This document shows positions 33,600 through 42,363 of a stretch of DNA of 64,000 bases, piece after piece. This stretch comes from Escherichia coli. GTDB lineage: Bacteria; Pseudomonadota; Gammaproteobacteria; Enterobacterales; Enterobacteriaceae. Positions within the stretch are counted from its first letter, which is position 1. Every line of letters begins with the position of its first letter. The position numbers and the translations under genes are program-made. The stretch lies in NCBI RefSeq assembly GCF_041886205.1, contig NZ_CP169031.1. The stretch is one strand, 5' to 3'. A model generated the notes under the pieces. That model was given only the letters and a program-made list of their open reading frames with translations, did not search any database and was not told where the DNA came from.

Positions 33600-34916
33600 T
33601 ATACATTAAAGAGACACCTTTGGTGCAAACGCGTTACGTACATCAACCACCGCTGATGATTTTGTGCTCTTTGCTACTATTCATCACCGCGGGATCAGCG
33701 TAACCTCGTTGCCAATCAGTTAATAAGGAATTAGCTATGCCTAATCGCATTCCTCTCATCTCTTAACGATATCAACGATGCGTTATATGAATACTGTGAA
33801 AAAACGAGCATCACAGATGCACCTGATGCATTTGTCGAGCTACCGGTATATCTCCGCGACATCTATGCAATACGAACACCGCCCGTATCGGTGATTCACA
33901 TTGGCTATGTCCGCCTGTCCATCGAAGAAGATGAAGATCGTTATATCGTGCGCCACTATACATTGGACAGAAAAGAACTTCCTAATGAATGGAACATGAG
34001 TAATTTCTACAACGGTGAATATGGCTTAAAATCCGCTAATAATTTACGGTCATAATCTATACAGGCATGTATAACAACAACGAGCCTATTAGCTGTCAAC
34101 AACGTTATTTTCTCAAATAAGAAAAGGCACAAAACAAATTGTTTAAGGCCACAAATTGTGGCCTTAATGGAGGAGGGAGGCTTATTGGCTATGGCTAAAA
34201 ATCAAATTAGACACTTCATGTTGCTGTAGCTCATCTAGATCCGAGGCCACAAAACCTTTTCCGAAAAAATTCACAAGTAACTCACTAGCCGCATCATTAT
34301 CACCTATTACACGAAAGCCATACGGCAACGTCGCAAGTTGACGATGTAATCCTGCTGAGAAAGTCGAATCTAACAGCGCCCAGAATTCCCACAGCAGGAT
34401 AATACTCGCCTCTTAATACTGTATATATGTTGTTACGATATGTTTTTCTGTCTCTAAAAAAAGATGTTAATAGAATGCTAACCATTGAAGTGGATAAAAA
34501 TATACAATTCCAACAAACGTTATCTTTAACAATTTTTTTCTTTGCGTTGACTTTCCCGGACACCTTGTCTGACCGAAGGTGCGCGAAAGCCACTTTTTCC
34601 TTCCTGAGTTATCCACAAAGTTATGCACTTGCAAGAGGGCCATTTTCTACATATTGTGGTGGCTAACAGATGAAATGAATGTAGATTAATTGAAGATAAG
34701 GAGAAAATTTGAGATGCAATCATGACGTTAATAGATATGGTCTGCATTACAGACCCCACCCGCATCAAGGAATTAGCCGTTCCCTGATGTTTTTCCGAAA
34801 ACATGTGCCGTAAGCTCACGTTAACGACTTTCATTCACCGAATCCAACTATATAGGGGTTGGGTTTCTACGTCAACGTGAGAGCACACAGCTTTACATTT
34901 GACGAGGATTACCCTG

Positions 34917-35054
34917 ATGATTGTATTTTTTCAGTTTCTAAGTGCATTTTTAAATGCGCCTGTTCTTAGCCAAGTGCTGGCGATTGTCTTCATCGTGGTT
35001 CTGATATGGTTTTTCAAGTCAGTGATAAACAGAGGCGTGCGCTGGCTTATTTAA
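34917..35054 (+). CDS. small hydrophobic membrane peptide (45 aa)
   Basis: MIVFFQFLSAFLNAPVLSQVLAIVFIVVLIWFFKSVINRGVRWLI with SD GAGGA 8 nt upstream. Confidence 0.3.
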   Translation: MIVFFQFLSAFLNAPVLSQVLAIVFIVVLIWFFKSVINRGVRWLI

Positions 35055-35237
35055 TGTCGCGCTGAGATATTAATTCCCTTGCTGTTTAACCATTTTTTGT
35101 GTGTGCTGGTGAGCGTGTGAAGGCTCAATTTGTTGCCCACCAGTATTTACTATTTCTAAGCTCCACATTGTCACTTCCGCACAAACAACTTAGCGCGGAA
35201 TCAGTATTCGGCCCAAGATGTAAAAAGCCAACCTGCG

Positions 35238-35453
35238 TTATGGTTCGCATTTCCAAATAGTGTTCTGAACGCCCGTGCCGGGCGCGAGATGTGGATTAGC
35301 GTTCGCGCTATGCTGATATACGACTTTGGACTTTCCATATTGCTGACAGGCTTTGTCTGCGGTTTTTTGCAGGCTGTCCAGCCCATACCAGCCATCTGAC
35401 TGGATGCTAACATTTTCGCCGTCATTGTATTGCACCATCGCACACCCAGACAT
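35238..35453 (-). CDS. small protein, unknown
   Basis: 71-aa ORF just upstream of hsdM on the opposite strand; upstream in-frame sequence resembles a lipoprotein signal (ILAMSGC) but lacks a start codon. Confidence 0.25.
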   Translation of the reverse strand: MSGCAMVQYNDGENVSIQSDGWYGLDSLQKTADKACQQYGKSKVVYQHSANANPHLAPGTGVQNTIWKCEP

Positions 35454-35586
35454 AGCTAAAATCGCACCGACAATACCGCTTTTCCAAAAAGCTCTAATTA
35501 GGTCATTCGTTACCTAATGTCCGAACTGCTAAAGCATCTAAGTTGCTGTAGAATCACATCCAATTACATAAGCCTGAAATAAGTGG

Positions 35587-37149
35587 ATGAAAATGACAAG
35601 TATTCAACAACGTGCAGAGCTTCATCGTCAAATCTGGCAAATTGCTAACGATGTCAGGGGTTCGGTCGATGGATGGGATTTTAAGCAATACGTTCTGGGC
35701 GCACTTTTCTACCGTTTTATCAGCGAAAATTTTTCCAGCCATATGGAAGCCGGTGATGACAGTATCTGTTATGCGAAACTGGATGACAGCGTAATTACTG
35801 ATGACATTAAAGACGATGCCATCAAAACTAAAGGCTACTTCATCTACCCCAGTCAGCTTTTCTGCAACGTAGCTGCGAAAGCAAATACCAATGACAGACT
35901 GAATGCAGATTTAAACAGCATCTTCGTTGCTATCGAAAGTTCTGCTTACGGTTATCCTTCAGAAGCTGACATCAAAGGTTTGTTTGCTGATTTCGATACC
36001 ACCAGTAACCGCTTGGGTAACACCGTTAAAGATAAAAATGCCCGCCTGGCTGCGGTTCTGAAAGGGGTTGAAGGGTTAAATCTGGGCAACTTTAACGAAC
36101 ATCAGATTGACTTATTTGGCGATGCCTATGAGTTCCTGATTTCTAACTATGCGGCGAATGCCGGTAAGTCAGGCGGCGAGTTCTTTACACCGCAACACGT
36201 CTCTAAGCTGATTGCACAACTGGCTATGCACGGGCAGACCCACGTTAACAAAATCTACGACCCGGCAGCAGGTTCCGGTTCGCTGTTGTTGCAGGCTAAA
36301 AAGCAGTTTGATAACCATATCATCGAAGAAGGCTTTTTCGGTCAGGAAATCAACCATACGACCTATAACCTGGCGCGTATGAACATGTTTTTGCACAACA
36401 TCAACTACGACAAGTTTGATATCAGGCTGGGTAATACACTGACTGAGCCGCACTTCAGAGATGAAAAACCGTTTGATGCCATCGTTTCTAACCCGCCGTA
36501 TTCGGTGAAATGGATTGGCAGCGATGACCCGACGCTGATTAACGATGAACGTTTTGCCCCGGCTGGCGTTCTGGCCCCAAAATCCAAAGCTGACTTTGCG
36601 TTTGTATTACATGCGCTGAACTATCTTTCGGCCAAAGGTCGTGCTGCGATTGTCTGCTTCCCGGGTATTTTTTACCGTGGCGGCGCAGAGCAGAAAATCC
36701 GTCAGTATCTGGTTGACAATAACTATGTCGAAACCGTGATTTCACTGGCACCGAACCTGTTCTTTGGCACCACCATTGCAGTAAACATTCTGGTGCTGTC
36801 TAAACATAAAACGGATACCAAAGTTCAGTTTATTGACGCCAGCGAACTGTTCAAAAAAGAGACTAACAACAACATCCTTACCGATGCGCATATCAAACAG
36901 ATTATGCAGGTCTTTGACACCAAAGCAGATACTGACCATCTGGCGAAATCTGTGCCGTTTGAGACCGTGGCCGCCAATGGTTATAACTTGTCAGTTAGCA
37001 GCTATGTGGAAGCCAAAGATACCCGCGAAGTTGTAGATATCACTGAACTGAATGCCGAACTGAAAACCACCGTCAGCAAAATCGACCAGTTACGCCAAGA
37101 CATTGATGTGATCGTGGCTAGAATTGAAGGCAGAGAGGTACAGGCATGA
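35587..37149 (+). CDS. hsdM: Type I restriction-modification system methyltransferase subunit HsdM (Type IC, EcoR124-like)
   Basis: 520 aa; N6-adenine methyltransferase motifs [10 protein letters not shown] and NPPYSVKW; N-terminus [17 protein letters not shown] as recalled for EcoR124 HsdM. Confidence 0.95.
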
Positions 37150-41400: not shown

Positions 41401-41592
41401 GAAGAGGCGGCGAAACGCTATATTCGCACGTCTTTAAAACGCGAATACGCCACCGAAAATGGCACAGAATTAAACGAAACATTACCAAAACTTAGTCCGT
41501 TGAATCCGCAATATAAAACGAAAAAACAGGCAGTTTTCCAGAAAATCGTCTCGTTTATTGAGAAGTTTAAAGGCGTAGGCGGAAAAATATAG
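38476..41592 (+). CDS. hsdR: Type I restriction-modification system restriction subunit HsdR (Type IC)
   Basis: 1038 aa; SF2 helicase motifs ([14 protein letters not shown]) and N-terminal nuclease region; gene order M-S-R is typical of the IC family. Confidence 0.95.
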
Positions 41593-41786
41593 CCCAATTC
41601 GTGTTTTTCTTGCGGGTTCTTAATTAAACCCGCAAGAGCTCGTGGGGTTCCAAATGGCTAATATACTCCCCTTACCCATGCGCGACGATGCCGCCAAAAG
41701 TGATAGAGAACAGCCAGAAATAGATCGCGGCCATAATGATTTTGAATGCCGTGTTCATATTTTCAGCTCCTGTGATTGATTGGATA

Positions 41787-41817
41787 CATGCCGCGCCTTG
41801 CGGCATGTTTTTATTTT
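41787..41817 (+). terminator. rho-independent terminator downstream of hsdR
   Basis: Hairpin catgccgc/gcggcatg followed by TTTTTATTTT. Confidence 0.6.
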
Positions 41818-41840
41818 CACTTTCTCTGTTTTAAAAATCA

Positions 41841-41857
41841 AGATTTATTAGAGTAAT
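41841..41857. promoter_or_regulatory. C1 operator (15/17)
   Basis: agatttattagagtaat at the junction of the pap-like gene and the RM island. Confidence 0.6.
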
Positions 41858-42363
41858 TATTGCTGATGGAGAAGCGCGTTTTCATACTCCCTGACCATTA
41901 ACGTAAGTACGCCGTGACTCCTGAAAACACGCGCCACTTCAATCTTATCTTCCAGCGCGAACGCGATTTTACTTAGACCAATTTTCTTAAGGAGATCAAT
42001 CTTTGCTGGGCCGTCATTTCTATCATCGGTAGCAGGACGCATAGATAGCAAAGGCTCAGCCCCGTTTGTTACGTGCTTACGCAACCAGGCTCGTGTTTTA
42101 TCCCTGGCTATCTCACAGCGCCCGGTTACAAACCAGAGGGTGTAAATGCCGGACAACTGGCGCACCATATCAATAACTGGAGTGATGGGAGTATCGGTGT
42201 CACAGGCGAGATTAAACTCGTTCCAGTCCTTTGTTAATGCACCTTTACCTGGTGGCGGAAGCAAATGCAGTCTGTCTTCAGTTGCCTCTGATATTGTTCC
42301 ATCAATATCGACTATGACGATATACGGACGTTCCTGGTGTGCGTGTTTATTGAAAATACTCAA
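41857..42363 (-). CDS. HAD-family phosphatase (P1 pap-like)
   Basis: HAD motif I IVIVDIDGTI; 168 aa. Confidence 0.65.
   Translation of the reverse strand: MSIFNKHAHQERPYIVIVDIDGTISEATEDRLHLLPPPGKGALTKDWNEFNLACDTDTPITPVIDMVRQLSGIYTLWFVTGRCEIARDKTRAWLRKHVTNGAEPLLSMRPATDDRNDGPAKIDLLKKIGLSKIAFALEDKIEVARVFRSHGVLTLMVREYENALLHQQ

Follow-up and report, generated by a model that had tools for sequence, protein, structure and literature searches.

We analyzed a 64,000-nucleotide stretch of Escherichia coli DNA (contig NZ_CP169031.1; hereafter the window) that carries three adjacent genes, hsdM, hsdS, and hsdR. Judged by sequence, these very probably make up a complete Type IC restriction-modification system of the EcoR124 family, which a P1-like phage-plasmid carries as cargo for lysogenic conversion. 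The original prediction, made from the DNA letters without database searches, had named an EcoR124-like system with proteins of 520, 402, and 1038 amino acids, encoded in the order hsdM-hsdS-hsdR on the strand opposite to the flanking phage genes. This was borne out, and all three open reading frames (ORFs) were found to be intact.

The hsdMSR genes and their predicted products

The hsdM gene (35587-37149, plus strand) encodes the Type IC N6-adenine methyltransferase subunit of 520 amino acids and matches the NCBIfam profile TIGR00497 with 636 bits (cut-off 243). The hsdS gene (37146-38354, plus strand) encodes the specificity subunit of 402 amino acids, assigned by alignment to EcoR124 HsdS, and hsdR (38476-41592, plus strand) encodes the ATP-dependent translocase/endonuclease subunit of 1038 amino acids, which matches the HsdR family profile TIGR00348 (NCBIfam) with 766 bits (cut-off 285). 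PADLOC assigned the three ORFs to the methyltransferase, specificity, and restriction endonuclease subunits of a Type I system.

Type I systems are grouped into families by similarity in sequence, by cross-reaction of antibodies, and by complementation. HsdR residues 1-1038 were aligned to EcoR124I HsdR (2w00_A) with 2278 bits and approximately 98% identity, with about 17 substitutions within the printed part of the alignment. HsdM residues 1-519 were aligned to EcoR124 HsdM (7bst_D) with 1117 bits and approximately 96% identity; the roughly 22 substitutions are found chiefly toward the C-terminus. In contrast, the Type IA protein EcoKI HsdM scored just 68 bits against the HsdM of the window. 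On near-identical NCBI contigs the 1038-amino-acid hsdR product is annotated with the Pfam domain EcoR124_C. The gene order hsdM-hsdS-hsdR with hsdR set apart is that of Type IC. Based on every membership feature that can be tested in a sequence, the system is assigned to the EcoR124 (Type IC) family, in agreement with the original prediction.

The checked nuclease residues of HsdR (D151, E165, K167, Q179, Y183, and K220) are in place, as are the motor motifs GSGKT (310-314, with K313) and DECH (408-411). In HsdM the S-adenosylmethionine motif DPAAGSG at position 225 and the NPPY motif at position 302 were both found.

The stop codon of hsdM and the start codon of hsdS overlap by 4 bp (ATGA). 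EcoR124 hsdR has its own separate promoter, and the 121-bp spacer between hsdS and hsdR in the window (38355-38475, plus strand) is the putative site of such a promoter; it holds a sigma-70-like TTAACA-18-TATTTT sequence at 38382-38411, which is a consensus match only. The region upstream of hsdM (35488-35586, plus strand) is common to all P1-like hsd cassettes and presumably contains the promoter of hsdM and hsdS along with a ribosome-binding site. Position 35488 is also where homology to the common plasmids and phages with the arrangement phd, hsdMSR, pap begins. A prrC-like anticodon nuclease gene beside hsd was considered, and there is no room for one at the locus.

Expression, activity, spacer length, and promoters are here read by analogy, following the EcoR124I paradigm. 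hsdM and hsdS would be co-transcribed and translationally coupled through the ATGA overlap, and HsdM and HsdS would assemble into an M2S1 methyltransferase that methylates adenines at N6 within a bipartite target set by the two target recognition domains (TRDs) of HsdS and separated by an N6 spacer. HsdR, expressed separately from its own promoter, would join this enzyme to give R2M2S1, which would translocate DNA from unmodified sites at the expense of ATP and cut it at a distance. The lysogen would thereby be protected against unmodified phages and plasmids, while the DNA of the prophage itself would be modified within the lysogen. Establishment in a new host would proceed through the restriction alleviation of Type IC systems, which according to reviews is assembly-controlled and independent of ClpXP.

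Several observations weigh against this reading of the locus. For the promoters only weak consensus matches were found, the two TRDs are unlike any that have been structurally characterized, and HsdR and HsdM carry the substitutions given above relative to EcoR124, although none of these affects a checked catalytic residue. Among related phages, hsdS of phi456 is interrupted and hsdM and hsdR of 673R5 are fragmented as annotated, from which it follows that the system is not always maintained. The damaged copies and the weak promoter evidence could also point to a silent or modification-only remnant in the window, in which restriction was lost by substitutions or for want of hsdR expression. 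We find such a remnant improbable, since all three ORFs are full length, the checked nuclease, ATPase, and methyltransferase motifs are all intact, and the very same HsdS and HsdR proteins are kept on about 40 NCBI contigs with sizes up to 98.6 kb. The exact HsdS protein is deposited as EEY5396755.1, among others.

HsdS alleles and target recognition

The N-terminal, central, and C-terminal conserved regions of HsdS were found to be identical or nearly identical to those of EcoR124 HsdS (7bst_A), whereas both TRDs (roughly amino acids 20-140 and 203-340) are unrelated to those of that protein. The target of the window system is therefore not GAA N6 RTCG. Alignment to EcoR124 HsdS and four other P1-like alleles gave the layout of a Type IC specificity subunit, including two TAEL repeats at amino acids 168-171 and 172-175 (nucleotides 37647-37670). 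In Type IC systems two such repeats give a 6-bp spacer and three repeats a 7-bp spacer (PMC3874165). The window HsdS is therefore predicted to recognize a target with a 6-bp non-specific spacer.

Outside the conserved frame, comparison of the TRDs to solved S subunits gave weak matches only (E=5e-8, Methanocaldococcus jannaschii 1yf2), too weak for a specificity to be predicted from them. TRD2 had a weak NCBIfam match to the specificity-subunit model PRK09737 (50 bits, cut-off 662).

The five aligned P1-like HsdS alleles have the conserved frame in common and differ in their TRDs. TRD2 of the window is that of pECTOK-001_2 and of many other P1-like plasmids, and TRD1 was, among the five aligned alleles and the PLSDB hits, matched only in pYLPD4a. 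The HsdS of pYLPD4a (NZ_CP074008.1, 6001-7221) agrees with that of the window in both TRDs but has three TAEL repeats and a length of 406 amino acids. pYLPD4a is an IncFIB plasmid, and its hsdS adjoins humD-like and theta-like genes. As far as can be read from these alleles, hsdS TRDs are reassorted among P1-like cassettes. Swapping of TRDs has been described for Type IC in laboratory work, and in EcoR124I and EcoR124II the spacer is altered by a change in TAEL copy number (PMC3874165). By their repeats and TRDs the window and pYLPD4a proteins are a natural pair with predicted N6 and N7 spacers, the counterpart of EcoR124I/II and of the laboratory TRD swaps. The allele in the window probably has an N6-spaced specificity that is not yet characterized, with its natural N7 partner in pYLPD4a.

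That one and the same TRD pair occurs with different numbers of TAEL repeats (two in the window, three in pYLPD4a), taken with the spacer change in EcoR124I/II, might suggest that the system serves mainly as an epigenetic switch, with TAEL slippage between N6 and N7 altering the lysogen's methylome and its gene expression. We regard this as scarcely credible, since there are just two 12-bp repeat units, with which switching by unequal crossing-over would be rare, and since an intact hsdR suggests that restriction is what has been selected for. The internal duplication in hsdS was also the sole structured repeat returned by the repeat search.

The hsd block and its P1-like carrier

The window could largely be aligned to P1, in nine colinear blocks of 94-98.5% identity that run in reverse orientation with gaps between them, and the records nearest to it were IncY plasmids and Punavirus phages. 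By synteny and identity the carrier is a P1-like phage-plasmid (Punavirus), of which the plasmid replicon and the remainder of the genome lie partly outside the 64-kb window. C1-operator-like sites numbered 14, compared to 0.33 expected by chance, and an Rfam scan of the whole window gave three tRNAs. To the left of hsd are doc (32499-32879), phd (32879-33106), and humD (33173-33562), and to the right are pap (41857-42363) and pmgS (42437-43699), all on the minus strand. The flanks (32000-33757 and 41668-44000) are 98% identical to P1, with DNA of the phd/doc side upstream and DNA of the Op88/pap side downstream of hsd, as in other P1-embedded Type IC loci. Alignment to P1 thus agrees with the location that had been proposed, between phd/doc/humD and the pap/pmg genes, and the P1 record holds other genes than hsd at this position, as had also been stated.

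Homology to P1 ends at 33757, 21 bp into lxr, returns at 34533-35111 with 83% identity, and resumes at 41668, just upstream of the P1 pmgT start. The base-level break points relative to P1 and to an hsd-less backbone are at approximately 35112-35114 on the left and approximately 41668 on the right, and the hsd block is therefore taken as 35112-41667 (6.56 kb). It substitutes about 1.45 kb of P1 DNA holding pmgV-pmgU-pmgT. No direct or inverted repeats were found at the block edges 35112 and 41667, which is more in keeping with exchange among related plasmids by homologous recombination than with transposition. The block appears to be an exchangeable module at a P1 variable region, swapped by homologous recombination in shared flanks.

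The left part of the block (35112-35487, minus strand) is 376 bp long and is missing from the common short arrangement. It contains a lipoprotein-like ORF (35238-35453, minus strand) with a lipobox, KSGIVGAILAMSGC followed by AMVQ, and a match to phrog_7757 (E=1e-51). No ATG, GTG, or TTG start was found upstream of its signal-peptide-like part, where there is an in-frame ATT. This ORF is kept beside hsdM in two backbones, including that of pYLPD4a, which is not IncY; homology to pYLPD4a spans from 35238 to exactly the hsdR stop codon at 41592. The 75-bp tail of the block (41593-41667, plus strand) ends where P1 homology resumes and contains a hairpin at 41608-41639 with a 10-bp stem and no T-run on either strand.

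The original prediction had drawn the element differently, as a discrete, newly noted island inserted at 34060-41860, with an AT-rich segment and palindrome as its left boundary, a terminator and C1 operator as its right boundary, and an unusual pairing with the Dar anti-restriction proteins. All of the named features do exist, and hsd is absent from this place in the P1 reference. The palindrome TTAAGGCCACAAATTGTGGCCTTAA was found at exactly 34143-34167, where it also scores as a terminator-like hairpin on the minus strand, and the GC content is 0.38-0.41 over approximately 33750-34750 compared to 0.47-0.51 in the flanks. The hsd-less IncY plasmid pXH987-OQX, however, contains 32000-35114 uninterrupted at 96% identity, the position of the palindrome included, and continues beyond this into pmgV/pmgU homologues and then pap. 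Since the same DNA is contiguous in an hsd-less plasmid, the proposed left boundary is backbone. Such AT-rich, hsd-less elements might be secondary deletions of hsd, against which their intact pmgV/pmgU homologues speak. Judged by these alignments, 33758-35111 is a variant of the P1-like backbone that lies outside the hsd block.

Within this variant, 33758-34532 is a separate substitution of lxr/hot, independent of hsd. A scar at 33737-33766 leaves nine codons of lxr, with approximately 624 bp deleted relative to pRHB34-C14_2, and the same scar was found in pXH987-OQX. The deletion also takes the 5' end of the next ORF, of which a 3' fragment (33891-34055) corresponds to positions 65-118 of the 118 in phrog_5797. 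The AT-rich segment proper (34044-34520) matches nothing in either P1 or pRHB34-C14_2. It occurs widely among P1-like plasmids and takes the place of hot, which encodes a homologue of the theta subunit of DNA polymerase III. Its longest ORF (34300-34593, minus strand, 97 amino acids) has no family match, and a permissive Rfam scan of 33500-35650 gave nothing credible in the AT-rich segment. Family searches with the small ORFs of 33560-35590 returned only PHROGs of unknown function. The diverged upfO-upfM segment kept at 34533-35111, with its 83% identity to the P1 upf region, contains a DnaA box, TTATCCACA, at 34609-34617. A sister contig (GCA_031615695.1) is identical to the window except for a 768-bp insertion (2516-3283 of that contig) at the equivalent of window position 34437. 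The sequence of window 34429-34437 is present on both sides, as would be expected if an element of the IS1 type had inserted and duplicated a 9-bp target.

On the right, only four mismatches to P1 were found over 203 bp, and the terminator and operator are accordingly P1 DNA; both exist, and neither is an island boundary. An intrinsic-terminator-like hairpin with a T-run, identified by hairpin scoring at 41786-41808 (plus strand), probably ends the hsdR transcripts. The sequence ATTACTCTAATAAATCT (41841-41857, minus strand) matches the C1 operator Op88 and differs from P1 Op88 by one base. The predicted pmgT promoters annotated in the P1 record (P1pmgT and P2pmgT) are retained at 41810-41857. 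Between the Op88-controlled promoters and the former pmgT start, at 41672-41758 (minus strand), there is a hydrophobic ORF of 28 amino acids, MNTAFKIIMAAIYFWLFSITFGGIVAHG, which has a ribosome-binding site of the GGAG type. P1 has an identical, unannotated copy of this ORF, most of which lies inside 84 bp of P1 DNA that the P1 record relates to R124/3. The C1-controlled pmgT promoters now point through this ORF into the antisense strand of hsdR. As a speculation, convergent transcription from these retained promoters on prophage induction could lower restriction.

Nor does the presence of Dar set the element apart. The window encodes complete hdf-darA-ddrB (2319-8213) and darB (14512-21279), and wild-type P1 pairs Dar with a resident restriction-modification system of its own, the Type III res/mod. 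The action of Dar proteins is exerted in cis, on the packaged DNA as it enters (PMC12707154), and they hence leave a resident restriction system undisturbed. For P1 it is normal to have Dar and restriction side by side, and the combination with a Type I system is not the notable one it had been held to be. The res-mod genes form variable region 1 of P1-like plasmids (PMC9603915). Between lxc and mat, the location of res/mod in P1, the window has a slot of only 1017 bp (22003-23019) that lacks these genes; within the 64 kb Type IC thus replaces EcoP1I rather than adding to it. The slot contains an ORF of 202 amino acids (22081-22689, minus strand). This ORF has a match to phrog_10454, a family of unknown function, and a weak one to an acetyltransferase PHROG; PADLOC gave no hit for it.

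Altogether, the left-edge DNA being contiguous in hsd-less P1-like plasmids, the right-edge DNA being nearly identical to P1, and Dar acting in cis at entry make the island reading very unlikely, and its novelty is contradicted by the P1 record and by the number of plasmids with the same arrangement, described below. In place of a single insertion spanning 34060-41860, comparison with P1 and hsd-less plasmids gives a substitution with edges at approximately 35112 and 41667. For annotation, the block is thus Type IC hsdMSR with edges 35112 and 41667, and the AT-rich palindrome region is excluded.

The window departs from P1 at other places as well. A transposase ORF cut by the window edge (1-1078) covers positions 170-516 of the 517 in phrog_688 and adjoins a holin-family ORF (1227-1511, phrog_1527); this stretch had no match in the P1 record used. 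At 8513-10006 the IS1 and isaB segment of P1 is gone, with 31 bp between the flanking homologies, and isaA is followed by a 684-bp non-P1 stretch that is part of a 281-amino-acid ORF (9333-10178, minus strand, phrog_872, unknown function). The dmt-like ORF (57957-60221, minus strand) encodes 754 amino acids, compared to the 3042-bp dmt coding sequence of P1 (about 1013 amino acids). It has nothing corresponding to about 1 kb of the P1 gene, and another short segment is replaced.

Distribution and comparison with known systems

The RefSeq record of P1 marks its own flanks as matching those of hsd loci. According to its notes, DNA upstream of the EcoDXXI hsd locus has 98% identity to doc-phd, in a match that extends five bases into the 3' end of the humD coding sequence. 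DNA downstream of that locus has 96% identity to the Op88 region, where 84 bp also have 98% identity to DNA downstream of hsdR in R124/3. These 84 bp correspond to window 41668-41751, and the right junction of the window lies at the same base as those in the R124/3 and EcoDXXI notes. Type IC hsd loci are reportedly flanked by P1 DNA, to go by the title of a 1997 publication by Tyndall et al. At least 258 PLSDB plasmids were found to span the junction between hsdR and P1 DNA on the right. A further class, conjugative plasmids included, keeps only the 84-bp P1 remnant, like R124/3. Two deposited P1-like phages carry hsd at the locus, phi456 (OR339795) and vB_EcoM-673R5 (ON470615), and NCBI assemblies contain near-identical contigs of 93-98 kb, one of which matches 32000-44000 with two mismatches. 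Literature searches on phi456, 673R5, or hsd in P1-like plasmids gave nothing useful. An hsd locus at the variable region between phd/doc and pap of P1-like elements is ordinary and already described. P1-like phage-plasmids commonly bear an EcoR124-family Type I system at this region, and shuffle its TRDs and spacer repeats.

The commonest arrangement is shorter than that of the window, with phd followed directly by hsdM and a junction at window 33182/35488. The window represents a long form. It keeps humD, the backbone variant, and the upf segment, has 376 bp of additional cassette DNA that includes the lipoprotein-like ORF, and is an exact exchange for pmgV-pmgU-pmgT; its left junction is spanned by 30 PLSDB plasmids. 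The long arrangement may be closer to the form in which Type IC hsd first entered P1-like genomes. If so, the common form with phd next to hsdM and the R124 and EcoDXXI loci would derive from it. We consider this ancestry, and likewise the damping of hsdR by the antisense pmgT promoters, rather unlikely.

The closest relatives at the same locus are those of phi456, vB_EcoM-673R5, pECTOK-001_2, and pRHB34-C14_2. All four carry hsdMSR on the strand opposite to phd/doc and pap and are 93-97% identical to the window at the DNA level outside the TRDs; most have the short arrangement without humD. TRD1 differs from that of the window in all of them, and of the four only pECTOK-001_2 has TRD2 in common with it. 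pRHB34-C14_2 has the long left arm in common with the window from 34521 but retains lxr and hot, where the window has the deletion scar and the AT-rich substitute. In phi456 (3837-6274) hsdS is split into a 96-amino-acid N-terminal piece and a 356-amino-acid remainder by an unrelated ORF of 326 amino acids, which has no PADLOC match and is annotated as 'putative baseplate hub protein'. The split hsdS and this insert account for the additional ORFs that phi456 has between hsdM and hsdR.

Among the named systems, EcoR124I and EcoR124II (R124 and R124/3), the prototype of Type IC, have the same gene order hsdM-hsdS-hsdR, and their HsdM and HsdR are likewise 520 and 1038 amino acids long. EcoR124I has two TAEL repeats as in the window, and the conserved HsdS regions are nearly identical, while its HsdS is 404 amino acids compared to 402. 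The EcoR124 replicon is the R124 resistance plasmid, whereas that of the window is a P1-like phage-plasmid. The EcoDXXI hsd locus has the same position relative to P1 as that of the window. EcoDXXI differs in having three TAEL repeats, with the target TCA N7 RTTC, and a left junction of the short type, with phd next to hsdM, where the window keeps humD, the backbone variant, the upf segment, and the 376 bp. EcoP1I, the Type III system encoded by res/mod, is the canonical restriction system of P1. It differs in both enzyme type and locus but is analogous in function, since it too provides restriction and modification from a prophage alongside Dar.

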